NCBI RefSeq assembly: GCF_044324785.1
Contig: NZ_CP172127.1
Source of the DNA: Escherichia coli
GTDB lineage: Bacteria > Pseudomonadota > Gammaproteobacteria > Enterobacterales > Enterobacteriaceae
Length of the DNA stretch: 64,000 nucleotides
Direction: 5' to 3' (one strand)
Below are positions 48,820 to 63,485 of this stretch, piece after piece; positions within the stretch are counted from its first letter, which is position 1; the number at the start of each line of letters is the position of its first letter. The position numbers and the translations under genes are program-made. The notes under the pieces were generated by a model that searched no databases, was not told the origin of the DNA, and was given only the letters and a program-made list of their open reading frames with translations.

Positions 48820-49059
48820 TTAACCATTATCGACCACAATATTGCTTTTACGTAACAACGGGCAATCTGTTATCCCCAGAAAACCACTTTTAGTGTGCAG
48901 GTATTGTACCGTGCTGGTGCCTCTGGCGGTCAGATAGGTACATTGCAAACCTAATCCCGCGGCATTCTCTTTGCTTCCAATCAAAACGCCATATCCGCTG
49001 AGTAATAATCCTATCCATACCAGTGCTATCAGCATAACTGTGCGAATGATGAATCGCAT
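48820..49059 (-). CDS. yobH: Uncharacterised small membrane protein YobH
   Basis: 79-aa ORF with N-terminal hydrophobic segment. Confidence 0.8.
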   Translation of the reverse strand: MRFIIRTVMLIALVWIGLLLSGYGVLIGSKENAAGLGLQCTYLTARGTSTVQYLHTKSGFLGITDCPLLRKSNIVVDNG

Positions 49060-49217
49060 TACAACCTCTTCTCTTTTTATGTTCGCTTAATCGTAGCGGC
49101 AATATGCGCTGAAGCAAGCGACTCATTCTGAAAAAGCACGAATATCGACATAGTTAGGCGCTGTTTAACTAACGCATGCTAGTTTAATGACATAAGGTAG
49201 GTGAAACGGAGATTGGA

Positions 49218-49361
49218 GTGAAAAAGTTTCGATGGGTCGTTCTGGTTGTCGTGGTGTTGGCTTGCTTGCTGCTTTGGGCGCAGGTATTCAACATGATGTG
49301 CGATCAGGATGTACAATTTTTCAGCGGAATTTGTGCCATTAACCAGTTTATCCCGTGGTGA
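49218..49361 (+). CDS. mgrB: PhoQ-inhibitory small membrane protein MgrB (47 aa)
   Basis: GTG start; encodes [47 protein letters not shown]; below ORF-track cutoff, found by direct reading. Confidence 0.85.
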
Positions 49362-49435
49362 TATCATTTTTTCAGCACTAGATTTTCTTCCTCTCCAGCA
49401 GTGGTAGAATAGCGCCTCTACTCAGAGGTGGTGAA

Positions 49436-49723
49436 ATGAACGAAGTTGTAAATTCAGGCGTGATGAACATTGCGTCTTTGGTTGTATCGGTGGTGGTTCT
49501 TCTTATCGGGCTCATCTTGTGGTTTTTTATCAATCGTGCCAGTTCACGGACTAACGAACAGATTGAACTGCTTGAGGCGTTGCTGGATCAGCAAAAACGT
49601 CAAAATGCACTGTTACGTCGTTTGTGCGAAGCAAACGAACCAGAGAAAGCAGATAAAAAGACCGTTGAGAGTCAAAAATCGGTTGAAGACGAAGATATTA
49701 TTCGTCTGGTCGCCGAACGATAA
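49436..49723 (+). CDS. yebO: Uncharacterised membrane protein YebO
   Basis: 95-aa ORF with N-terminal TM helix. Confidence 0.85.
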   Translation: MNEVVNSGVMNIASLVVSVVVLLIGLILWFFINRASSRTNEQIELLEALLDQQKRQNALLRRLCEANEPEKADKKTVESQKSVEDEDIIRLVAER

Positions 49724-50392
49724 TCCTTCCTCAATCTTGAGTAACCCCGTCGTTGAAGGGTTACTCAATTCATCCTGATTATACGCACTGCCATGGTGCA
49801 ACTGCTTCAAATTAAAACTCTGGTCTGACTTCAAATAATTATCATATTATTTATTTGCGTAACGGGATATCAGAAAAAGATATTTAGCCCATTAATTTAT
49901 TAGGATGTTTACATCGGATTTGTGATTAAGTGTGGTATTATTTATTAGCGAAACGTTTCTCTCTTGATTTTTTTGCGCATTCATCAATTTTTCTTATTTT
50001 AAATTTACAATACCTTTGGCGATTGACTTCTCTTTGGGGTGATTGATAGCCGTTAACTGACTGTTTTATGAGAAAAAGTGATATAACTTTTTATTCATTG
50101 CATAGCAGAAAATGTGATATTGCACGCACTATGTAATAACTTCTCCCATTGGCCTGGAACAACTGAACTTATTGAACTATGTTAGAAAATACGTCAGTTT
50201 AAGTATCTGCCTGAACTGGCAAGGTTAAGCACAATGATATATCGGCGCGTATTCCGTTGCATAAGTGTGCAAAAAAAGTGGAAGACGTATCGAGATTTGT
50301 GCGTCTGATCGAGACATGTTTAAAAATGGCTTGCCATAATTAACGTTGTATGTGATAACAGATTTCGGGTTAAACGAGGTACAGTTCTGTTT

Positions 50393-50536
50393 ATGTGTGG
50401 CATTTTCAGTAAAGAAGTCCTGAGTAAACACGTTGACGTTGAATACCGCTTCTCTGCCGAGCCTTATATTGGTGCCTCATGCAGTAATGTGTCAGTTTTA
50501 TCTATGTTATGCCTGCGGGCGAAGAAAACAATCTAA
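50393..50536 (+). CDS. yobF: Small protein YobF (47 aa)
   Basis: ATG..TAA encoding [47 protein letters not shown], 12 nt upstream of cspC; below ORF-track cutoff. Confidence 0.8.
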
Positions 50537-50548
50537 GGAATTTTTCAA

Positions 50549-50758
50549 ATGGCAAAGATTAAAGGTCAGGTTAAGTGGTTCAACGAGTCTAAAGGTTTTG
50601 GCTTCATTACTCCGGCTGATGGCAGCAAAGACGTGTTCGTACACTTCTCTGCTATCCAGGGTAATGGTTTCAAAACTCTGGCTGAAGGTCAGAACGTTGA
50701 GTTCGAAATTCAGGACGGTCAGAAAGGTCCGGCAGCTGTTAACGTAACAGCTATCTGA
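50549..50758 (+). CDS. cspC: Cold-shock-domain protein CspC
   Basis: 69-aa ORF; RNP motifs KGFGFI and VFVHF. Confidence 0.96.
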
Positions 50759-50803
50759 TCGAATCCACTGATCTGAAGTGTGAATACGCTTCAATCTCGC
50801 TAT

Positions 50804-50830
50804 AAAGCCTCGTCGAATGCGAGGCTTTTT
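50804..50830 (+). terminator. Rho-independent terminator after cspC
   Basis: aaagcctcg-tcgaat-gcgaggcttt hairpin followed by T-run. Confidence 0.8.
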
Positions 50831-50923
50831 ACTTTGCTTTCTCTTCGCTCCAGTCGTTCGGATATTTGCCCGCCGCGTGATTCGCGTTACACTTGCGGCC
50901 TTTAGTATCCTGCCGGAGTTGTC

Positions 50924-51733
50924 ATGTCGTTTTCCTGTCCACTTTGCCATCAGCCTCTTTCGCGTGAAAAAAACAGCTATATCTGTCCCCAGCGACATCA
51001 GTTTGATATGGCGAAAGAAGGGTATGTCAATCTGCTGCCCGTTCAGCATAAACGGTCTCGTGATCCGGGCGACAGCGCGGAAATGATGCAAGCACGCCGC
51101 GCATTCTTAGATGCCGGACATTATCAGCCGCTGCGTGATGCAATTGTCGCTCAACTGCGGGAACGGCTTGATGAAAAGGCCACAGCGGTGCTGGATATTG
51201 GCTGTGGTGAAGGGTATTACACACACGCATTTGCCGATGCGCTGCCCGAAATCACCACGTTTGGCCTGGATGTCTCGAAGGTAGCGATAAAAGCGGCGGC
51301 GAAACGCTATCCGCAGGTCACTTTTTGTGTTGCTTCCAGCCACCGTTTGCCGTTTTCCGATACCAGTATGGACGCCATAATACGTATTTACGCGCCGTGT
51401 AAAGCAGAAGAATTAGCGCGAGTAGTGAAGCCTGGCGGTTGGGTCATTACTGCCACGCCGGGACCGCGACATTTGATGGAGCTGAAGGGGCTGATTTACA
51501 ATGAAGTACATCTTCATGCACCACATGCAGAACAACTGGAAGGTTTTACATTACAGCAGAGTGGTGAGTTGTGTTATCCGATGCGTCTTCGCGGTGACGA
51601 AGCCGTCGCATTATTGCAGATGACGCCGTTTGCCTGGCGTGCGAAGTCAGAAGTCTGGCAAACACTGGCAGCAAAAGAAGTGTTCGACTGCCAGACGGAC
51701 TTTAATATTCACCTCTGGCAGCGTTCTTATTAA
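50924..51733 (+). CDS. rlmA: 23S rRNA m1G745 methyltransferase
   Basis: 269-aa ORF; N-terminal Cys4 zinc motif (CPLCH...CPQRH), SAM motif LDIGCGEG. Confidence 0.92.
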
Positions 51734-52296
51734 CCGTGGAAGTGCGTCCAGAGGATCTGGACGCCGATGCCGATCAGTACCAGCCCACCGAGAATTTCCG
51801 CTTTTTTCCCAATAATTGAGCCGATAAAGCGACCAACCATCATCCCTAATGTCGACATAATCAAGGTTGCACAACCAATGGCCAATGCGGTCGCGATAAT
51901 GTTGACCTGCAGAAAGGCGAGACCAACACCCACAGCCATGGCATCCAGGCTGGTGGCAATCGCGGTGGTTACCAGTAGCCAGAAACCGTGTCGACGGCGC
52001 GGTTCTTGATCTTCATCATCTGCGCCACGAAAACCCTCAATAATCATTCGCCCGCCGAGGAATATCAGCAGCACAAACGCAATCCAGTGGTTCCATTCAA
52101 GGACAAACCGGCTGGCTAACATGCCCATTCCCCAGCCGATCAGCGGCGTCAGGGTTTCGACGGCACCAAAAATAAGGCCGGTTCGCAACGCTTCAGAAAA
52201 TTTCGGTTTATGGAGGGTGGCACCTTTACCGATTGATGCAGCAAATGCATCCATCGACATACCAAACGCAAGAAGAACAGTAGCAGTGATATTCAT
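51730..52296 (-). CDS. mntP: Manganese efflux pump MntP
   Basis: ORF 51730..52350 trimmed to [18 protein letters not shown]... (188 aa); convergent 4-nt overlap with rlmA. Confidence 0.9.
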
Positions 52297-52329
52297 GACA
52301 ACGTCCTGACCGGGGTATCCATAAAACAC

Positions 52330-52521
52330 ATCATCGCCCCCAGCAAACATGCATACATGAACGACAAACCGCGATGGTTTTCGCGTTCATGCAGGCATAG
52401 CGATTGATGTGCATATGGTCTCGCCTGACTGAAAGTGTTCAGTCCGTACGTGCCACGTTTTGCAACGAGTATGTTGACACGTACATTTCCGGAATCTGGA
52501 AATCGGCTACTCCCCAAATGA
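52330..52521 (-). promoter_or_regulatory. yybP-ykoY family Mn2+ riboswitch in mntP 5' leader
   Basis: Long leader between mntP start and promoter; minus-strand sequence contains the conserved GGGGAGUAG element; established that E. coli mntP has this riboswitch. Confidence 0.6.
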
Positions 52522-52724
52522 GGGCGCAACCTTAACATATTTTGAGAATATAAAACAACTGTTGGAATATATTATTTCATTGCTTTATTGATAACGATTT
52601 TCATTTAGATTTATATATCAATGAAACGTTAAAATAAATAACAAATAAGGGAAGGGGTAATATAGCCTAAGCTATGTCTGATTATTAAAAATACACTAAA
52701 CATAGCTTTGGCTAAATTGATAAC

Positions 52725-53183
52725 TTATTGAGTTGAAACGAGAAGCTTATAAATTTTTTCCAGATCGTCGATATTTCGAACGCGGATTAACAGCCGACGC
52801 TGTTCTAATTGCATCACCAACACGCCATCTTCCGACAAGTTCATCGCTTTGATTCGGCTATATTCAATCCAGACATTGGCGAAGAAAAAACCTTTTTGTT
52901 TAAAGATGATCTTCGGAACGCGGATCCAGAATATATAAAAACCCATCAGAGCCAGTGCACTTAATAACCATGTTGTTATTAGCGCGCCATGATTCGTGAC
53001 GTTGTTATAGATAAGAATGACAATCAATCCGACGAAGATAACGCTATCGATGCGACCACGCCGGAGCAAAGGAATTGCCAGCAGAGTGGGGCCGTTACGG
53101 CGGGGCATGATGAACTGATCGTAGATCGCGAAGGCCAGGAGTGCGGCGATGAAAAGAATCAGTACCAGGTCCGTGATTGTCAT
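52725..53183 (-). CDS. yobD: UPF0266 inner membrane protein YobD
   Basis: 152-aa ORF; GGAGG SD upstream. Confidence 0.85.
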
Positions 53184-53195
53184 TAATCCTCCAGA

Positions 53196-53221
53196 TAAAA
53201 AAACGGGGCCAAAAGGCCCCG
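53196..53221 (-). terminator. Rho-independent terminator of manXYZ operon
   Basis: ggggcc-aaaa-ggcccc hairpin with A7 on plus strand (U-run for minus transcript). Confidence 0.8.
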
Positions 53222-53237
53222 GTAGTGTACAACAGTC

Positions 53238-54089
53238 TTACAGTCCCAGCAGGCCGCAAGCGTAACCAGCGATACCGATGACGAAGAAGCCAACGATGAT
53301 CCACAGCGGGTTAACTTTTTTGCGTAGTAGCCACATACAGGCAAAGGTCAGCAGCAGTGGTACCAGGCCTGGCATTAACTGGTCCAGAATAGTCTGAACA
53401 GTGGTAACGTGTTCTTTGCCCGTCTGGTCAGTAATGCGAGAGACAACCAGCGGGATGTTGACATGCGTCCACTTGTTAACTAATGCCCCCATGACAAACA
53501 GGCCGAGGATAGACGCCCCTTCCGTCAGTTTTTGCAGGAAACCACCACCCATATCTTTAACGATATCGATACCTTTGGAGTAACCATACGCTACGCCGTA
53601 GTAACGGGTTGCCAGACGCACCAGGTTAAACAAGATGAAGAACAGCAGCGGACCTAACAGGCTGCCGCTCATTGCGATACCGGCACCAAGCGCTGCAAAT
53701 ACCGGACGTACGGTTCCCCAGAAGATCGGGTCGCCTACACCAGCCAGCGGCCCCATCAAACCGACTTTGATACCGTTGATAGCACCGTCATCGATCTCTG
53801 CGCCATTAGCACGCTGTTCTTCCAGCGCCAGGGTTACGCCGAGAATCGGCGCAGCCACGAACGGCTGGGTGTTAAAGAACTCCAGGTGACGGCGAATAGC
53901 TTGTTTACGAGCTTCGTTGTTCTCAGGGTAGAGGCGACGAATTGCCGGTACCATAGAGAAGCAGAAACCCAGTGCCTGCATACGTTCGAAGTTCCATGAA
54001 CCCTGGAAGAGGTTAGAACGCAGGAAGACGCCACGAATATCACTTTGAGTGAGTTTTTTCTCGGTGGTAGTTTGAGTTGTATCAACCAT
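53238..54089 (-). CDS. manZ: PTS mannose-specific EIID component
   Basis: ORF 53238..54098 (286 aa); start may be the ATG at 54089. Confidence 0.93.
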   Translation of the reverse strand: MVDTTQTTTEKKLTQSDIRGVFLRSNLFQGSWNFERMQALGFCFSMVPAIRRLYPENNEARKQAIRRHLEFFNTQPFVAAPILGVTLALEEQRANGAEIDDGAINGIKVGLMGPLAGVGDPIFWGTVRPVFAALGAGIAMSGSLLGPLLFFILFNLVRLATRYYGVAYGYSKGIDIVKDMGGGFLQKLTEGASILGLFVMGALVNKWTHVNIPLVVSRITDQTGKEHVTTVQTILDQLMPGLVPLLLTFACMWLLRKKVNPLWIIVGFFVIGIAGYACGLLGL

Positions 54090-54101
54090 TTCGCTCACCT
54101 G

Positions 54102-54902
54102 TTAGTCCAGTTCGTTATCGAGATCGTTGTTACCAGCAGCCTGAGCAGGCGCACCGGCTACGCGGTTGTATTTCGGGCTAAGTTGGATGTAGAGCACTGC
54201 CATAACAGTACCAATCACACCCAGAGCAACCAGGTTAAAGTTGGTGAATGCTGCGGTTACGAAGCCGAGGTAGAAGAACGGCATCAGGTAGCCAGCACGC
54301 ATCATGTTGATAACCATCGCATAACCAACCACCACGATCATGCCACCGGCGATATTCAGACCATTGGTCACCACTTCCGGAATCGCATTCAGCATGTTCT
54401 GTACTTCGCTGGTACCAACAGACAACGCAACGATGACGGCCGGAATAGCCACACGCATTGCTTGCAGGAACAGAGAAGAAACGTGGATCCAGGAAATCGC
54501 TGTCAGGTTGCCGTTATCAGCAGCCTTATCCGCAGCGTGCTGGAAAGCAACGGTAATAGTACGAACGATGATGGTCAGTACCTGGCCCGCAGCGGCCAGA
54601 GGGATTGCCAGTGCGATACCTGCACCAATGCTCTGATGACCTGCGATAACCAGAATAGTAGAAATGATGGAAGCCAGAGCGGCGTCAGGCGCAACTGCAG
54701 CACCGATGTTCATCCAGCCCAGCGCGATCATTTCCAGCGTACCACCGATAATAATACCGGTTTTCATATCGCCAAGAACGATACCCACCAGGGTACACGC
54801 GATTAGCGGACGGTGAAACTGAAATTCATCGAGGATTGATCCCATACCTGCGATACAGGCTACGATAAATACCAGCACAATTTGAAGAGTGGTAATCTCC
54901 AT
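54102..54902 (-). CDS. manY: PTS mannose-specific EIIC component
   Basis: 266-aa polytopic ORF. Confidence 0.95.
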   Translation of the reverse strand: MEITTLQIVLVFIVACIAGMGSILDEFQFHRPLIACTLVGIVLGDMKTGIIIGGTLEMIALGWMNIGAAVAPDAALASIISTILVIAGHQSIGAGIALAIPLAAAGQVLTIIVRTITVAFQHAADKAADNGNLTAISWIHVSSLFLQAMRVAIPAVIVALSVGTSEVQNMLNAIPEVVTNGLNIAGGMIVVVGYAMVINMMRAGYLMPFFYLGFVTAAFTNFNLVALGVIGTVMAVLYIQLSPKYNRVAGAPAQAAGNNDLDNELD

Positions 54903-54964
54903 TGTACTTCTCCTGTTTACGTAAGACTAAAGTGTGAAAACTGAGTGATAATCAACACAATACG

Positions 54965-55936
54965 TTACTTATCGATTTTGCTGATCAGATCCATCATTTT
55001 CAGTTTCGGATCGGTGGAAACCTTACGGACTTCCAGCTCAATACCGCGCGCATTCAGTTTCTTGAACGCCTCGATATCTTTTTCATCAACCGAAACCGCG
55101 TTATTCACCTGGGTTTTACCCTGACGGAATGCCATACCACCGACGTTAACAGAGGTGATTTTCACGCCGCCTTCAACGAGACGCTCTACATCTGTTGGGT
55201 TGGTAAATAACAGCATTACACGTTCGCCAGCATATTTCGGGTTGTTGTAGACGCGAATCATTTTGGCAACATCAACTACGTGTGCTGTTACGCCCGGAGG
55301 TGCAACCTGGGTGAGCAGTGTCTTACGAACGGTATCCGCAGCCACTTCATCACTAACAACAATAATACGGGAGACATTGGTTTCTTTGGTCCAGCGGGTG
55401 GCGACCTGACCGTGAATCAGACGGTCGTCGATACGCGCAAGGCCAATAACCATGTAGTCGTTTGGCCCCATTGGTTTTGCCGGAGTTGGAGCCGCTTTTG
55501 GTGCTGCGGCAGCGGGTGCTGGCGCAGCTTTTTCAACCGGTTTGGCTTTCAGTGCTTTCACGCCTTCACGGCCTGTTTCTACTGCCAGCGCAACCAGTTC
55601 ATCAAAGCTTGGGTCATCATCACGGGCCATTAACGTTTCCACGAGCATTGGAATGTTAACGCCTGCAATGACTTCATAATGCTCTTTGTCGACGACAATG
55701 CGGCTGGCAGCATTGAACGGGCTGCCTCCCCATGTATCAACGAGAAACAGCACGCCTTTAGTGGTGTCGAGTTTTGCCAACTGAGCGTTGTACTTTTCAA
55801 TCAGCGTTTCGGCATTTTCACCTGGAACGAAATCGATCCAGCCGACGTTTTCCTGCTCGCCTAACAGCATTTCTGCCGTTTTAAGCAACTGCTCTGCAGC
55901 CCAACCATGTGTGCCTATAACAATAGCAATGGTCAC
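54965..55936 (-). CDS. manX: PTS mannose-specific EIIAB component
   Basis: 323-aa ORF, GTG start preceded by AGGAGG; Ala/Pro-rich linker between IIA and IIB. Confidence 0.95.
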   Translation of the reverse strand: MTIAIVIGTHGWAAEQLLKTAEMLLGEQENVGWIDFVPGENAETLIEKYNAQLAKLDTTKGVLFLVDTWGGSPFNAASRIVVDKEHYEVIAGVNIPMLVETLMARDDDPSFDELVALAVETGREGVKALKAKPVEKAAPAPAAAAPKAAPTPAKPMGPNDYMVIGLARIDDRLIHGQVATRWTKETNVSRIIVVSDEVAADTVRKTLLTQVAPPGVTAHVVDVAKMIRVYNNPKYAGERVMLLFTNPTDVERLVEGGVKITSVNVGGMAFRQGKTQVNNAVSVDEKDIEAFKKLNARGIELEVRKVSTDPKLKMMDLISKIDK

Positions 55937-56054
55937 TTGCTACCTCCTTTATTATCGTTAACACCTCAACGTGCCAGATGTATTTTTGAATCGTCGTCCA
56001 CAATCGAATCGATTCAGATAAGGGCTACAACCAAAAACCCCTGCGTTTCGCGAT

Positions 56055-56075
56055 TTATTTTAGATATCGAAAAAA
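56055..56075 (-). promoter_or_regulatory. Candidate Mlc/NagC-type operator in manX promoter region
   Basis: TTATTT-tagatatcg-AAAAAA about 120 bp upstream of manX; resembles Mlc/NagC sites; not verified. Confidence 0.3.
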
Positions 56076-56398
56076 TTATTTTATGTGATGAAGATCCGTA
56101 ATTTAACTTTCGATTAGCAGAAATTTCGAAAGGTAAAATATCCTTGTCACATTCGTTTGCAAAGGAAGGTAAATCTTTGCCAAATCAGAGGCGTCTCTGA
56201 TATGTTTAACTCCCGTTTAACAACCATGGAGTATAGGGCAGTAGCCCGCAGTATGGATCGTCACCGACGTCATTTCAGCATCAGGCCTTTTAACGCCTGC
56301 CTTTCTGGCACTCTATGCCGCACCTTTCGTTTGCATTTTGTCGTTACGCCTGCATTATTTCTGGCGTCGAATAGCTATTCCTTAAGCAGGAGCTTGTC

Positions 56399-57955
56399 AT
56401 GGAATTCTTAATGGACCCCTCAATTTGGGCGGGGCTACTCACGCTTGTTGTTCTCGAAATTGTGCTGGGTATCGATAACCTGGTCTTCATCGCCATTCTT
56501 GCTGACAAACTGCCGCCAAAACAACGCGATAAAGCGCGTTTGCTGGGATTATCACTGGCGCTGATTATGCGTCTGGGGCTGCTGTCGCTGATTTCATGGA
56601 TGGTCACGCTGACCAAACCGCTATTTACCGTCATGGATTTCTCCTTCTCCGGACGTGACCTGATTATGTTGTTCGGGGGAATATTCTTGCTGTTCAAAGC
56701 AACAACCGAACTGCATGAACGGCTGGAAAACCGCGATCATGATTCCGGTCACGGTAAAGGCTACGCCAGTTTCTGGGTGGTCGTCACACAGATCGTCATC
56801 CTTGACGCCGTCTTCTCGTTGGATGCGGTAATTACGGCAGTAGGGATGGTTAACCATCTGCCAGTGATGATGGCGGCGGTAGTGATTGCGATGGCGGTTA
56901 TGCTGCTGGCATCGAAACCGCTGACGCGATTTGTTAACCAGCATCCAACGGTGGTGGTGCTCTGTCTGAGCTTCCTGTTAATGATTGGTCTGAGTCTGGT
57001 GGCAGAAGGTTTCGGTTTCCACATTCCGAAAGGTTACCTGTATGCCGCGATTGGCTTCTCGATCATCATCGAAGTGTTTAACCAGATTGCGCGTCGCAAC
57101 TTTATTCGTCACCAGTCGACTTTGCCGCTGCGAGCGCGTACTGCCGATGCCATCCTGCGTTTGATGGGCGGGAAACGTCAGGCCAATGTTCAGCACGATG
57201 CCGATAACCCGATGCCGATGCCGATCCCGGAAGGTGCATTTGCCGAAGAAGAACGTTACATGATTAACGGCGTACTCACGCTGGCGTCGCGTTCTCTGCG
57301 CGGGATCATGACGCCGCGCGGTGAAATAAGCTGGGTTGACGCTAATCTCGGGGTCGATGAAATCCGCGAGCAGCTGCTCTCCTCACCGCACAGCCTGTTC
57401 CCGGTATGTCGCGGTGAACTGGATGAAATCATCGGAATCGTACGTGCTAAAGAACTGCTGGTGGCGCTGGAAGAGGGCGTTGATGTGGCGGCGATTGCTT
57501 CGGCGTCTCCGGCGATTATCGTCCCTGAAACCCTCGATCCGATCAACCTGCTGGGCGTGCTGCGTCGTGCTCGCGGGAGCTTTGTTATCGTGACCAACGA
57601 GTTTGGTGTGGTACAAGGCTTGGTCACGCCGCTGGATGTGCTGGAAGCCATTGCGGGTGAATTCCCGGACGCTGACGAAACGCCGGAAATCATTACTGAT
57701 GGTGACGGCTGGCTGGTAAAAGGCGGTACAGATTTGCATGCCTTGCAGCAGGCGCTTGATGTTGAGCACCTTGCCGATGACGATGATATCGCGACGGTCG
57801 CGGGCCTCGTGATCTCGGCAAATGGTCACATTCCCCGTGTGGGCGATGTGATTGATGTAGGTCCACTGCATATCACCATCATTGAAGCCAATGATTATCG
57901 TGTTGATCTGGTTCGCATTGTTAAAGAGCAACCGGCGCACGATGAAGATGAGTAA
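56399..57955 (+). CDS. yoaE: TerC-family membrane protein with CBS and CorC domains
   Basis: 518-aa ORF recognised as YoaE. Confidence 0.92.
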
Positions 57956-57958
57956 GCG

Positions 57959-59557
57959 TTAACGTAACGGCATAACGGGCGTGATATGTCCATTATGCCG
58001 GGCGGGCGGCGGTTGGCTGCCCGCCAGCCATTTGGGAAAATCACGTAGCGGCATCGGCTGTGCGTACAAATACCCTTGCAAAATATGCACGCCATGACGG
58101 CGCAAATACTTCGCCTGTTCTTGCGTTTCCACGCCCTCCGCCACCAGTTCAATATTCAGTCTTTGCCCCAGCGCGATGATGATATCGGTCACCGTCGAGT
58201 TAACCGCGTCAGAACCTATAGCTGCGGTAAATGACTTATCAATTTTCAGCACGTCAGGACGTAATGTTTCAAGCCAGGAAAACGAGCTGTTGCCGGTGCC
58301 GAAGTCATCAATCGCCAGTTTGACGTTTTTACGATGCAGCTCGCGGGCAATCCGATAATCCACATCCAGTAAGGCATCGCGTTCGGTGATTTCGAGGATC
58401 AGTTGCTGAATCGGGTGAGCGCTAAACCAGTACTGATTGAGATCTTTTATCAGCACACCACGGCGAAAATGGCTGGGTGCGACGTTAATGCCAACATGAA
58501 ACTGACTACTCATAGGGAAAACATGGCGCTGACGAATGGTTTCTGCCATCACATAGCGGGTCAGTGGCACAATTAAATGATGTTCTTCCGCGATAGGAAT
58601 AAACACATCCGGTGAAATCCAGCCCTGACGCGGATTGTTCCAGCGCAGCAAAATCTCTACACCAATACATTGCTGGCTGCGCGCATTAAGCAAAGGCTGA
58701 CAGAACAATTCGAACTCATGTTGCGCCAGGCCCAGATTGATTTCACGGGAAAAACTCATCCGGTAAGCGGTCGCCAGCCAGGCGATATAGCCCACAAGTA
58801 AACTTAGAAGCACCGCCAGCGGTAATTGTGTTGGAAGATAGTGCCATGCCAGCGCCGTAGCCCCCGGACCATTAACGTTAATGGTAAAAGGAAAGCGTTG
58901 CGAAGAAACCTGATAGTTTTCATTGTCTTCAGGTTGCGGAAGGGTATCTACCAGCCCATTACCATAGAGCAAATGCCGATTGTCCACCGTCAGGCTGGCG
59001 CTACTGATTTGCGGCAGTTGTGGCTCAAGCAGCATTGCCGCCAGTAAGTCGATGTTAATCATCTCCATGACCCCAGCATTGCTACTGCCCGCTGCTGGCG
59101 TCCATTGAATCAAAACCGGACTGCCTTTAATCAGGGCACGGTCGATCGTCAGGCGTAAAAGTGGTTGCGGTGCAGGAAGTTCAGCCAGAATGTCCACGAC
59201 GGGCACATTGCGATAACCAAAAATGCTGGAGCAATAAAGTGTGCCGTCTTGCACCAGGCCAATGGATCGCACAGTTTGGAGTTTTGCCGCCTGTTTACGT
59301 AATGGCAAATGGGCGACAGAGCAGGGCAGACCAATTAGCGGAAGTAAGACTTCGCTACCTGCCTGTAGGGGAAGCAGTACTTTATCTAATTCCTCTACAG
59401 CGTGATTGGCGAATTGTACTACCCGTTGTTGATTTAAGTTACGCTGTGAAATAAATCGCACGCTCAGGGTCGAAGCGAGCGTAACGAGTGCGCAAATCGT
59501 ACAAACAATCATTCGATTACGGCGATAGGTTTTAATGATCCGTTGTGCTTTTTGCAT
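57959..59557 (-). CDS. pdeD: c-di-GMP phosphodiesterase (CSS-motif sensor + EAL domain)
   Basis: ORF 57959..59587 trimmed to ATG at 59557 (532 aa); EAL signature EVLLRW. Confidence 0.88.
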   Translation of the reverse strand: MQKAQRIIKTYRRNRMIVCTICALVTLASTLSVRFISQRNLNQQRVVQFANHAVEELDKVLLPLQAGSEVLLPLIGLPCSVAHLPLRKQAAKLQTVRSIGLVQDGTLYCSSIFGYRNVPVVDILAELPAPQPLLRLTIDRALIKGSPVLIQWTPAAGSSNAGVMEMINIDLLAAMLLEPQLPQISSASLTVDNRHLLYGNGLVDTLPQPEDNENYQVSSQRFPFTINVNGPGATALAWHYLPTQLPLAVLLSLLVGYIAWLATAYRMSFSREINLGLAQHEFELFCQPLLNARSQQCIGVEILLRWNNPRQGWISPDVFIPIAEEHHLIVPLTRYVMAETIRQRHVFPMSSQFHVGINVAPSHFRRGVLIKDLNQYWFSAHPIQQLILEITERDALLDVDYRIARELHRKNVKLAIDDFGTGNSSFSWLETLRPDVLKIDKSFTAAIGSDAVNSTVTDIIIALGQRLNIELVAEGVETQEQAKYLRRHGVHILQGYLYAQPMPLRDFPKWLAGSQPPPARHNGHITPVMPLR

Positions 59558-59687
59558 GCGGGCCACCCTGTAAGCGTATGGCGACAAACGCCTGACGCAA
59601 CAGTGGAAGTGTAGTGGGGAAAATTACAGCAGACGAGAAAGCGGGGATAAATTCGCCCATCCGTTGCAGATGGGCGAGAAAGAAGTA

Positions 59688-61052
59688 TTAGTCACACTGG
59701 ACTTTGATTGCCAGACCACCGCGTGAGGTTTCGCGGTATTTGGCGTTCATGTCCTTACCGGTTTCGTACATCGTTTCGATAACCTTATCTAGCGAGACGC
59801 GCGGTGCGCTGGTGCGGCGCAGAGCCATCCGTGCGGCGTTAATCGCCTTCACAGAGGCAATAGCATTACGCTCAATGCACGGCACCTGAACCTGCCCTGC
59901 AACAGGGTCACAGGTCAGACCGAGGTTGTGCTCCATGCCAATTTCCGCCGCCACACAAACCTGTTCCGGGCTACCGCCCAACAGCTCGGCAAGGCCCGCA
60001 GCAGCCATTGAACAGGCAACACCCACTTCGCCCTGGCAACCAACTTCCGCACCGGAAATAGAGGCGTTCATTTTATACAATGCACCAATCGCGCCCGCTG
60101 CCATAAAGTAACGGGTATAGATGTCCGGGCTGACCGATTCAATAAAGTGGTCATAGTAAGCCAGCACTGCCGGAACGATACCGCAGGCACCGTTGGTTGG
60201 CGCAGTTACCACACGACCACCGGCGGCGTTTTCTTCGTTAACTGCCAGCGCAAACATGTTTACCCAGTCAATGACATTCATCGGATCGTTAGACAGTTTA
60301 TCGCTGGAAACCAGCATCCGGCGCAGGGCAGACGCACGACGCGGCACGCGCAGCGGGCCTGGCAGTACGCCTTCGGTGTTCATCCCGCGATCGATACATG
60401 CCTGCATGGTTTGCCAGACATGCGCGAAATACTCGTCGATCTCTTTCTTGCTGTGCAGCGCCAGTTCATTCTGCATAGCGAGACCAGACAGCGAATAGCC
60501 GGTTTCGTTACAGTACGCGAGCAGTTCGGTGGCAGATTTGAACGGATACGGCACGCTCACTTCGTTGGCGGCATCCTGACCAAAGTGTTCTTCATCGACG
60601 ATAAAACCGCCGCCGATGGAATAATAAGTTTTGCTGTAGACGACTTCATCGCCATTATAGGCGTGGATTTGCATACCGTTTTCATGCAGCGGCAGGTTAC
60701 CGTTATGAAAACGCATCCCGTTGTCGCGCGGGAAATCCACTTCATGCCGTCCCTGTGCCAGCAGCAGACGTTCGCGCTCTTCTACGTCGCGAATAAAACC
60801 GGGAATACTGTCGATATCCACGGTGGCAGGTTCGTTACCTGCAAGACCCATAATAATGGCGATATCGGTGTGGTGGCCTTTACCCGTCAGCGACAGTGAA
60901 CCATAAACGTCCACGGCAACGCGAGTAACGCTATCCAGTAAGCCTTTTTCGACCAGATCATCGACGAACTGTTTACCCGCCTTCATAGGCCCTACGGTAT
61001 GGGAAGATGAGGGACCAATCCCCACCTTAAACATGTCGAATAGACTAATCAC
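59688..61052 (-). CDS. sdaA: L-serine dehydratase 1
   Basis: 454-aa ORF, GTG start; recognised SdaA. Confidence 0.96.
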
Positions 61053-61235
61053 GATAATACTCCTGACAAGGTGACTGGACTTCCAGTAACGAACTAATAA
61101 CAGCGCATAGTGTAAGAGGGAACGCGGCGACTGGCTTAACTATTCACATGAATTAAACTAATCAAAAACCGCGATTTAACTAATATTGCGATGATTGTCT
61201 CAAGTAGTGTTTTGTAGATGTAAAGATAAGTATAG

Positions 61236-61814
61236 TCAGGGTTTCACACCAATTTGCAGCGCCAGTTCACGAATTATGCCTGCGGTCATTCCCCATACAA
61301 AATACTGTTCGTACCAGGACAGCCATACCCGATGTGAATCGCCACGGCGGTAGATATCTAAAGGGTGATAACGACCCAGATGTAATGCCTGGGCGAGCGG
61401 CATTTCAAACACCGCCGAGACTTCATCTTCACTGGCGCGATACGGCAGATCGGGCGGGATAATGCCGACCACCGGGGTTACCTGGTAGCCAGTTACGCTA
61501 TCGACGGGCGGCAGCACGCCGATAACTTCAACGGCGGAAGGCGGTATAGCGACCTCTTCTTCAGCTTCGCGCAGCGCGGCGGCGATAACTGATGTGTCCG
61601 TGTCATCGACTGCACCTCCAGGGAATGCCACTTGTCCGGCGTGTTTACGCAGATGAATCGAACGCTGAGTCAGCAATAACCCCGGTTGCGGTCGACGGAC
61701 GATGGGGATTAACACGGCAGCCTGACGATGATTTAGGGTTTCCCGGTTAATTTGCGGGCGCAAAAGTTGAAAGCGCGATAAAAAATCATCAAGCGTCAGG
61801 CTACGGTATTCCAC
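61236..61814 (-). CDS. nudL: CoA pyrophosphatase (Nudix)
   Basis: 192-aa ORF; Nudix box; 3-nt spacing after pabB. Confidence 0.9.
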
Positions 61815-61817
61815 GTC

Positions 61818-63179
61818 TTACTTCTCCAGTTGGCGTAATATCTTATTAACTTTATCAAAAGTTTCCTGATATTCCGCTTCTTCCTGGCTATCGGCGACAA
61901 TTCCACCGCCCGCAGAGCAGTAAATTTGTCCGTTAATGGCAGTCAGCGTGCGGATAGTAATGCTGGTGTCCATGTTGCCGCAAAAGCTCAAATAGCCAAT
62001 GCTGCCGCACCAGGCATTGCGTCGGTGCGGTTCCAGTTCGTCGATAATTTCCATAGCCCGTACTTTCGGAGCCCCAGTTATTGAGCCACCAGGAAAAGCT
62101 GCGCGCAGCAGATCGCTGGCGTGTAACTGTTCTGGTAGCCGCGCCGTTATGGTGCTGACCAGATGATGCACGGCAGGGAAGGGTTCGACCACGAACAGCT
62201 CTGGTACTTTTACCGAACCAGCTACGGCAACGCGACCGATATCATTACGCATTAAATCAACAATCATCAGATTTTCAGCGCGATCTTTCGCTGAGTTCGC
62301 CAGTTTTTCTGCTTGTTTGCTATCTTCCTGAGGATCGGGCAGGCGTGGTAGCGTGCCTTTAATCGGGCGGGTCTGGATTTCACTATTATCACAAAGGATA
62401 AACCGCTCTGGCGAAAGGCTTAAAATCGCACCCTGTTCAAGACGTAAAAAAGCGCTAAACGGCGCGCGGTTGGCCTGATTAAGCTGAAGGAATGCCTGCC
62501 ATTCATCGCCAGAATAGGTCGTATGAAAACGCTGGGCGAGATTCACCTGATAGCAATCACCACTGTGCAGATATTCCTGTACCTGGCGAAATTTTTCGCC
62601 GTACTGCTCGCGGGTCATATTGGATTGCCAGTCGGAAGTGAGCGTGAAATCTTCCTGCGGCGAGAATTGCTGGCTTTCCAGCCAGGCCCGACGAGCATTG
62701 ACATCATTATGACTCAGCAAAGAAACTGTTTGACGCTGGTGGTCAACAACCAGCGCCCAGTCGTAGATACCCACTACCATATCAGGCAGAACGATATCTT
62801 GCTGCGCAATTTCTGGCAGTGACTCAAAACGGCGGCCCAGATCGTAGCCAAACAACCCCAGCGCGCCGCCCTGAAATGGCAAATCTTCGTTATGCGCTGG
62901 GCGAATGTCTGCGCGATCCAGCACCTGCTGGAGCACCTGTAGCGGGTCATCAGTGGTCGTTGTGCGTTTTTCGCTTTCACTAACAACGGTTTCTTTACCG
63001 AAAGTGGTTAAAGTGCAAATCGGCTCGGCGACCACAATATCAAAGCGGCTATACGGATGATCGGCATAGCCGGAGTGTAAAAGCATCGCCCACGGCAGGT
63101 GGCTTAAGCGGGAGAAATAAAATTCAGCGGCGTCCTGACGCCAGGGTAAAGTAATCACAGCGGGAGATAACGTCTTCAT
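61818..63179 (-). CDS. pabB: Aminodeoxychorismate synthase component I
   Basis: 453-aa chorismate-binding enzyme recognised as PabB. Confidence 0.95.
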   Translation of the reverse strand: MKTLSPAVITLPWRQDAAEFYFSRLSHLPWAMLLHSGYADHPYSRFDIVVAEPICTLTTFGKETVVSESEKRTTTTDDPLQVLQQVLDRADIRPAHNEDLPFQGGALGLFGYDLGRRFESLPEIAQQDIVLPDMVVGIYDWALVVDHQRQTVSLLSHNDVNARRAWLESQQFSPQEDFTLTSDWQSNMTREQYGEKFRQVQEYLHSGDCYQVNLAQRFHTTYSGDEWQAFLQLNQANRAPFSAFLRLEQGAILSLSPERFILCDNSEIQTRPIKGTLPRLPDPQEDSKQAEKLANSAKDRAENLMIVDLMRNDIGRVAVAGSVKVPELFVVEPFPAVHHLVSTITARLPEQLHASDLLRAAFPGGSITGAPKVRAMEIIDELEPHRRNAWCGSIGYLSFCGNMDTSITIRTLTAINGQIYCSAGGGIVADSQEEAEYQETFDKVNKILRQLEK

Positions 63180-63252
63180 CAGTCCTGACTCTACTGGCTA
63201 TGTGCCGGGTAGCATGAAATAATTAGCGCCAACAATTTAGCAGGAGTTAACA

Positions 63253-63432
63253 ATGTTTGCAGGTTTACCTTCACTCACCCATGAACAGCAGCAAAAAGCC
63301 GTCGAGCGGATCCAGGAACTGATGGCACAAGGGATGAGCAGCGGCCAGGCAATCGCGCTGGTGGCAGAAGAGCTGCGTGCCAACCATTCCGGCGAGCGAA
63401 TCGTGGCGCGTTTTGAGGATGAAGACGAGTAA
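63253..63432 (+). CDS. yoaH: UPF0181 small protein YoaH (59 aa)
   Basis: ATG..TAA encoding [59 protein letters not shown]; SD AGGAG upstream; below ORF-track cutoff. Confidence 0.8.
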
Positions 63433-63485
63433 CACACTTATCCGTATCGTTTTCGTTATAGAAGCCGATGGTTATTTGATTGTGA

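Follow-up and report, generated by a model that had tools for sequence, protein, structure and literature searches.

The small gene yobF, located directly upstream of cspC in the 64,000-nucleotide stretch of Escherichia coli DNA that we analysed (the window), showed no coding signature when compared across species, and this absence is the one result of the analysis that goes beyond existing annotation. The reading towards which we lean, with no great confidence, is that YobF (the Pfam family DUF2527) owes its conservation to the ultraconserved cis-regulatory leader of cspC and not to its peptide; yobF would then be mainly a translated upstream open reading frame (ORF), with an amino acid sequence that is close to neutral in Enterobacteriaceae. 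A sequence-only reading of the window had proposed yobF as one of three small genes that are missing from a list of ORFs of at least 60 amino acids (aa):

49218-49361, plus strand: mgrB (K-12 b1826), GTG start, 47 aa, a membrane peptide and feedback inhibitor of PhoQ
50393-50536, plus strand: yobF (K-12 b1824), ATG start, 47 aa, a translated ORF within the cspC leader
63253-63432, plus strand: yoaH (K-12 b1811), ATG start, 59 aa, a UPF0181 protein

The three ORFs are present at exactly the coordinates proposed, including the GTG start of mgrB, and a check for mismatches between their peptides and the annotated proteins b1826, b1824 and b1811 of K-12 gave 100% identity in each case. Their identity as E. 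coli mgrB, yobF and yoaH is textbook annotation. At the DNA level mgrB and yobF are identical to K-12 and yoaH carries two synonymous differences. The window itself is E. coli and aligns to K-12 MG1655 in reverse orientation, gap-free and with 98.5% identity (17,017 bases compared; window position = 1,957,984 minus K-12 position). Taken as a whole, the explanation set out here (the gene identities, the anatomy of the mgrB promoter, the leader reading of yobF and the reading of YoaH) is one that we hold with high confidence.

The stop codon of yobF (50536) and the ATG of cspC (50549) lie on the same strand, separated by 12 nt as in K-12, and this arrangement is common to the 80 species compared. 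The elements of the operon around yobF are the following:

50311-50340, plus strand: promoter-like site of the yobF-cspC operon, found by consensus scan (GAGACA-18-CATAAT, the second hexamer being preceded by TG)
50549-50758, plus strand: cspC, the downstream gene of the operon, identical to K-12 CspC (NCBIfam CspC subfamily, 170 bits)
50804-50828, plus strand: intrinsic-terminator-like hairpin after cspC, matching the terminal hairpin of Rfam RF01766

The promoter-like block is nearly invariant in the 80 species, and the site at 50311-50340 would act as the promoter of the operon. Conservation is unbroken from this site (about 50295) through yobF up to the start of cspC, and the leader of roughly 200 nt hardly varies among Enterobacteriaceae, whichever of the three codon positions is considered. 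The entropy per site at codon positions 1, 2 and 3 was 0.16, 0.13 and 0.10 in yobF, versus 0.01, 0.00 and 0.39 in the adjacent cspC, and across the same set of genomes conservation at the 'synonymous' sites of yobF was about four times that at the corresponding sites of cspC. The upstream boundary of conservation is sharp and lies at about 50258-50295: the AT-rich stretch that separates yebO from the yobF promoter (49791-50194) deviates from K-12 by 12 differences over about 400 bp and shows no conservation from genus to genus, whereas the 350 bp comprising promoter, leader and yobF (50195-50548) have none and are nearly invariant in the 80 species. The window gene at 50549-50758 is cspC by position, by K-12 annotation and by NCBIfam (170 bits for the CspC subfamily versus 145 bits for CspE); automatic annotation by the RefSeq pipeline (Prokaryotic Genome Annotation Pipeline, PGAP) is inconsistent here and calls it 'cspE' in strain ECA64 (L001 2750-2959) and in others.

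Selection on the reading frames was assessed from substitutions counted along a minimum-spanning tree that joined the haplotypes; each substitution was assigned to its codon position and scored as synonymous or non-synonymous. For the null distribution the changes were permuted to randomly chosen sites carrying the identical base, and the other two frames were run as controls. For yobF the test covered codons 1-38 in 70 loci and 38 haplotypes. The substitution events were spread evenly over the codon positions (22/23/20), the number of synonymous changes (18) was close to that expected (14.6; P=0.16) and non-synonymous changes were not depleted (47 observed versus 50.4 expected). The codon profile of yobF was indistinguishable from those of its own out-of-frame readings. 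The point estimate of omega was about 0.76; an omega below 0.4 was rejected (P=0.012) and an omega of 1 was not. In cspC the events were distributed 3/2/270 over the codon positions, with 269 synonymous changes versus 101 expected.

The reading frame itself is not strictly maintained either. Frame-shifting indels were found inside codons 1-38 in 11 of the 80 species, and downstream of these the nucleotide identity to the consensus stayed at 92-97%, versus 97% for the species in which the frame is intact. A leader with a natural frameshift is found, for example, in Kosakonia. Among the in-frame versions the C-terminal tail varies in sequence and, through small indels, in length (38, 43, 47 or 56 aa). 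As a protein family, YobF/DUF2527 thus holds together by its hidden Markov model and by its position before cspC, and not by purifying selection or by an intact frame. Unlike in the usual reading of the corresponding Pfam entry (PF10736), the family alignment would reflect nucleotide conservation of the cspC leader, with no detectable selection on the peptide. We infer that the leader is mainly under selection at the nucleotide level, presumably for cis-regulation of cspC (the reported pairing with OxyS included), and that the peptide is selected weakly if at all; yobF would be a 47-codon ORF translated inside this leader.

The alternative is that yobF is an ordinary protein-coding gene, the peptide of which is under selection, and that an overlapping constraint on the RNA masks the coding signal. 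The existence of a Pfam family, an ATG that is invariant in the 80 species and an omega with a point estimate below 1 are all consistent with it. Several further observations speak for this alternative or otherwise weigh against the leader reading. In a preprint (PMC11429745) low Mg2+ was found to induce initiation of yobF translation, His-tagged YobF was membrane-associated, and the low-Mg2+ growth defect of an E. coli yobF deletion was rescued by plasmid-borne YobF and not by a start-codon mutant. Our test of yobF comprised 65 substitution events only, with which an omega of about 0.5 is still compatible. No structural reason for the conservation of the leader emerged: RNAalifold proposed 44 pairs with essentially no variation, which made covariation uninformative, and the minimum free energy was weaker than that of shuffled sequences (z=+1.73), in other words the leader is not unusually stable. 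Finally, the similarity of the yobF region to the cspA 5' untranslated region (5'UTR) was marginal (z=2.4, with 20 of 500 shuffles scoring as well or better).

Nevertheless, a selected YobF peptide appears to us rather unlikely. It has against it the observed number of non-synonymous changes and the rejection of an omega below 0.4, the broken frames that leave downstream nucleotide conservation intact, and the tail that shifts in length and sequence through indels. It was moreover shown in Salmonella that the phenotype of a yobF deletion is polar on cspC and that a yobF plasmid rescues nothing (PMC8599858). Other published work treats yobF-cspC as one operon, in which OxyS was proposed to pair near the Shine-Dalgarno sequence of yobF and in which a yobF::sfgfp translational fusion was active (PMC10965054). 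Together, the reports on the operon, on the pairing with OxyS and on the polarity in Salmonella fit a role of yobF as part of the cspC leader.

Leaders that contain a short translated ORF have been described before for Mg2+-related genes, for instance MgtL in the leader of mgtA and YoaL in that of mgpA (yoaE; PMC12421838). YoaL resembles YobF in that its peptide is poorly conserved, with the exception of the first six residues and the part that overlaps the downstream ribosome-binding site. The two differ in that the yobF leader is near-invariant over its whole length, whereas yoaL has a hypervariable middle, and no mechanism of attenuation or ribosome stalling is known for yobF.

We claim neither a structured RNA element in the yobF-cspC leader, given its invariant pairs and a fold that is less stable than shuffles, nor a common origin of the yobF region and the cspA 5'UTR: the similarity was marginal, and blastn found no paralogous copy of the yobF region in E. 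coli. The Rfam model of the cspA thermoregulator (RF01766) did match yobF-cspC with 139.7 bits (threshold 78), the score being carried by the cspC coding sequence and the terminator; where its 5' part covers yobF, the alignment had low posterior probabilities and numerous non-standard pairs.

If the leader reading is right, yobF would be an example of a validated and Pfam-listed small protein whose apparent conservation is due to constraint at the level of RNA or DNA. For catalogues of small proteins this implies some caution: conservation of an ORF, even when accompanied by a Pfam family, is no proof of selection on the peptide when the ORF lies inside a conserved leader.

Another finding concerned the promoter of mgrB, a gene known from textbooks as a feedback regulator and clinically relevant in connection with colistin resistance. 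A PhoP box consists of two (T/G)GTTTA hexamers separated by 5 nt, i.e. with a period of 11 nt (definition of Kato et al. 1999, cited after PMC8355897 and PMC5775216). Scanning the window for KGTTTA-N5-KGTTTA with at most three mismatches yielded 179 sites, versus 137 +/- 12 in shuffled sequences, and a loose match on its own therefore carries little weight. The mgrB loci of other species were fetched with a degenerate DNA pattern for the CDQDVQFF core of the peptide, and 112 distinct upstream regions were analysed. A count of mismatches in the best box per species proved too noisy, the distal half-site being degenerate, and was replaced by a profile anchored on the invariant half-site. The elements found upstream of mgrB were:

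49151-49167, plus strand: predicted PhoP box with two mismatches, composed of TAGTTA (49151-49156), the spacer GGCGC and TGTTTA (49162-49167)
49177-49185, plus strand: putative extended -10 element, TGcTAGTTT, which includes most of AGTTTAA
49208-49211, plus strand: Shine-Dalgarno sequence GGAG, 6 nt before the GTG (CGGAG, 90-99% conserved)

The proximal half-site of the box matches at six of six positions and is present as KGTTTA in 106 of the 112 species. The distal half-site matches at four of six, so with the correct spacing the box falls within the limit of at most two mismatches applied in PMC5775216. The sequence AGTTA, 11 nt upstream of KGTTTA, is 80-99% conserved (consensus CAGTTA, in E. 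coli TAGTTA). In 95 of the 106 species with the proximal half-site it is followed, exactly 12 nt further on, by TGnTAnnnT. These patterns point to a PhoP-activated promoter architecture that lacks a -35 element: the PhoP box would occupy the -35 position, followed by a 12-nt spacer and the extended -10, transcription would start near 49192 and a short leader would lead to the GGAG and the GTG. By this route phosphorylated PhoP would switch on its own inhibitor MgrB, a negative feedback. With other PhoP-activated promoters that have the box at -35 (mgtA, phoP P1), mgrB shares the 11-nt period, the canonical proximal TGTTTA, the lack of a recognizable -35 and a -10 one helical turn (12 nt) downstream. 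It differs from them in its -10, which is of the extended TGn type, and in its degenerate distal half-site, and the weakness of this half-site, which in the consensus form of most other species (CAGTTA) matches at only three of six positions, is a point against the assignment.

The sequence-only reading had placed a PhoP-like direct repeat, TGTTTAA...AGTTTAA, at 49170-49196. One part of this stood: TGTTTA (49162-49167) is the downstream half-site of the predicted box. Its partner was misassigned, since AGTTTAA belongs to the -10 region and the actual partner is found at 49151-49156. The range was also inaccurate, as the first copy (49162-49168) lies outside it and the second occupies 49181-49187. 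Both heptamers exist, they share GTTTAA and each resembles a PhoP half-site when taken alone, but that PhoP binds this particular pair is very unlikely. The copies start 19 nt apart and are separated by 13 nt and not 5, against the 11-nt period of a PhoP box (PMC8355897, PMC5775216), and of the second copy only T49180, A49181 and T49185 (the TAnnnT of a -10 hexamer) and the preceding TG are conserved. At the position of AGTTTA, [TGA]GTTTA occurs in only two of the 112 species and the consensus is TAACCT.

The corrected anatomy of the mgrB promoter is useful for judging reported 'promoter mutations'. Within the 158 bp of the yobH-mgrB intergenic region the window and K-12 differ by just one single-nucleotide polymorphism: at 49129, 89 nt before the GTG, the window has a T and K-12 a C. 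The same allele was reported as a 'c-89t mgrB promoter mutation' in a colistin-resistant isolate from a dog (PMC11111722). The 61-nt stretch that carries T49129 is identical in 1,210 of 5,405 complete E. coli genomes (about 22%). Because position 49129 lies outside both the PhoP box and the -10, c-89t looks like a common polymorphism. We also observed conserved blocks upstream of the PhoP box, at 49108-49135 (approximately GAAnCAAG and ATTC..AAAAA, 70-99% conserved in the 112 species), which may be part of the divergent yobH promoter or represent another binding site.

The coding part of mgrB left little doubt. The GTG start and the frame of 47 aa are kept in about 110 species. The peptide fits the family description of an N-terminal hydrophobic helix with a periplasmic tail that carries two conserved cysteines: all 110 of 110 orthologues have both C28 and C39, and they share a conserved CDQDVQFF...IPW core. 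Substitution events were distributed 374/172/985 over codon positions 1, 2 and 3, with 1013 synonymous changes observed versus 450 expected. The gene does not differ from that of K-12: GTG start, orientation and neighbours (yobH and yebO) all agree, and C28, C39 and the C-terminal IPW are present. MgrB is an established inner-membrane peptide of 47 aa that inhibits the sensor kinase PhoQ (PMC11429745 and work cited there), and the peptide encoded in the window is identical to the one studied for this inhibition in PMC11429745. The current NCBI product name is 'PhoP/PhoQ regulatory lipoprotein MgrB'. The cysteine that could belong to a lipobox, C16, occurs in 99 of the 110 orthologues, a lipobox-like tetrapeptide (residues 13-16) in only 54, and our literature search found no paper that supports lipidation of MgrB.

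For yoaH the coding test was based on ten haplotypes, including DNA of eight other genera. The events were distributed 31/15/178 over the codon positions, and the 155 synonymous changes (54 expected) were reached in none of 1000 permutations. YoaH is a real protein under strong purifying selection, and the coding signatures of mgrB, cspC and yoaH are unambiguous. The protein is identical to K-12 YoaH (PF03701, NF003476), and the gene is divergent from pabB as it is in K-12 and in seven of the eight other genera; in the eighth (L123) the product of the neighbour was not identifiable. In a single-sequence AlphaFold model two helices (10-25 and 30-45) form a hairpin, behind which comes an acidic tail; the mean predicted local distance difference test (pLDDT) score was 75, with about 90 in the core. 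YoaH would be a soluble protein of 59 aa with a predicted two-helix hairpin and an acidic tail. A search of its sequence against PDB chains gave no relative and the best Foldseek match of the model to the PDB had an E-value of 1.4. Neither search found a relative with a known function, which counts against any functional proposal, and a two-helix hairpin is too generic for the structure to be of use in this respect. In the literature search yoaH was mentioned solely as an uncharacterized gene. That YoaH might be a small protein-binding adaptor is a low-confidence guess.

All three peptides match curated families far above the cut-offs:

MgrB, NCBIfam NF007635: 89.9 bits (cut-off 40), covering 1-47 of 47
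MgrB, Pfam PF13998: 66.3 bits (cut-off 27)
YobF, Pfam PF10736 (DUF2527/DUF2627): 105 bits (cut-off 25), covering 1-38 of 38
YoaH, NCBIfam NF003476: 114.2 bits (cut-off 72)
YoaH, Pfam PF03701: 100.9 bits (cut-off 23.5)

Of 5,426 complete E. coli genomes, 5,416 contain the stretch from mgrB to yobF and 5,424 the one with yoaH, and the genes are part of their annotation. Chance alone readily produces ORFs of 47-59 codons (a single 3-kb stretch here is overlapped by 56 ORFs of at least 20 aa), but the notion that one or more of the three is a mere chance frame can practically be dismissed, in view of the family matches, the annotation in the reference genome, the overwhelming coding signatures of mgrB and yoaH, and the experimental demonstration of yobF translation (PMC11429745, PMC10965054). 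The designation as bona fide small proteins, made in the sequence-only reading, is thereby supported for mgrB and yoaH by strong coding signatures, and for yobF by translation and annotation, though not by any visible selection at the protein level. As a discovery the three genes are minor, all being part of the reference annotation. They were missing from the list of ORFs because the longest ORF in the frame of each is shorter than 60 aa, and the practical lesson for such a scan is that a cut-off of 60 aa conceals real genes.

Conversely, several of the listed ORFs in the vicinity had been considered spurious. The nine neighbouring ORFs of at least 60 aa, which overlap the three genes or lie antisense to them, are:

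minus strand: 48890-49126, 49179-49367, 49613-49834, 50225-50431, 50507-51091 and 63237-63437
plus strand: 49470-49778, 50433-50747 and 50817-51086

Neither K-12 nor strain ECA64 has an annotation for any of the nine, and no Pfam family matched them, which is consistent with that view.

We found a fourth annotated gene of fewer than 60 aa in the same span, which was absent from the earlier list of small genes, together with a PhoP box upstream of it:

56253-56411, plus strand: yoaL (K-12 b4751, identical), a leader peptide of 52 aa that overlaps the start of yoaE/mgpA
56203-56219, plus strand: PhoP box upstream of yoaL-yoaE, TGTTTA-ACTCC-CGTTTA, with one mismatch

In the list of ORFs yoaL appears only as an ORF of 84 aa that is extended to an upstream TTG. 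The Pfam family of YoaL (PF22867; 136.2 bits versus a cut-off of 27) matches only residues 33-84 of this ORF and thereby supports the annotated ATG, showing that a listing of ORFs may present a real small gene solely in a form extended to a wrong start. At its other end yoaL reaches 13 nt into yoaE, and across species it has an invariant MDRHRR start, a hypervariable middle and an end that lies over the ribosome-binding site of yoaE. The PhoP repeat was recognizable in most of the 12 other aligned species (loci reaching yoaE) and degenerate in two (L106 and L107). A conserved TGnTAnnnT at 56198-56206 overlaps the box, a geometry that would fit repression by PhoP and form the mirror image of mgrB. 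The box is not put forward as a new member of the PhoP regulon, as its sequence has already been published as a PhoP site in Shigella, where it was established by electrophoretic mobility shift assay and DNase I footprinting and where yoaE was up 7-fold in a phoPQ mutant (PMC5775216). YoaE has since been named MgpA, which protects against excess Mg2+, with YoaL as its leader peptide (PMC12421838). Between AGGAG (56227-56231) and the ATG of yoaL a small conserved hairpin was observed, GGGCAGTAGCCC (56236-56247); in the literature we met no description of this hairpin or of the geometry of the yoaL promoter.

Elsewhere in the window, a match to the Mn2+ riboswitch (yybP-ykoY, RF00080) was found on the minus strand upstream of mntP, at 52427-52523, with 41.9 bits versus a gathering score of 45 (E=1.7e-08); this is where the known mntP riboswitch lies. 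A second PhoP-box-like site with one mismatch (52686-52702, minus strand, TGTTTAGTGTATTTTTA) precedes the riboswitch by about 165 nt; such one-mismatch sites are expected by chance about once per 64 kb. We finally observed that four functions linked to Mg2+ or PhoPQ, namely mgrB, yobF, cspC (needed for activation of PhoP in Salmonella; PMC8599858) and yoaL-yoaE/mgpA, lie together within about 9 kb (49218-57955).

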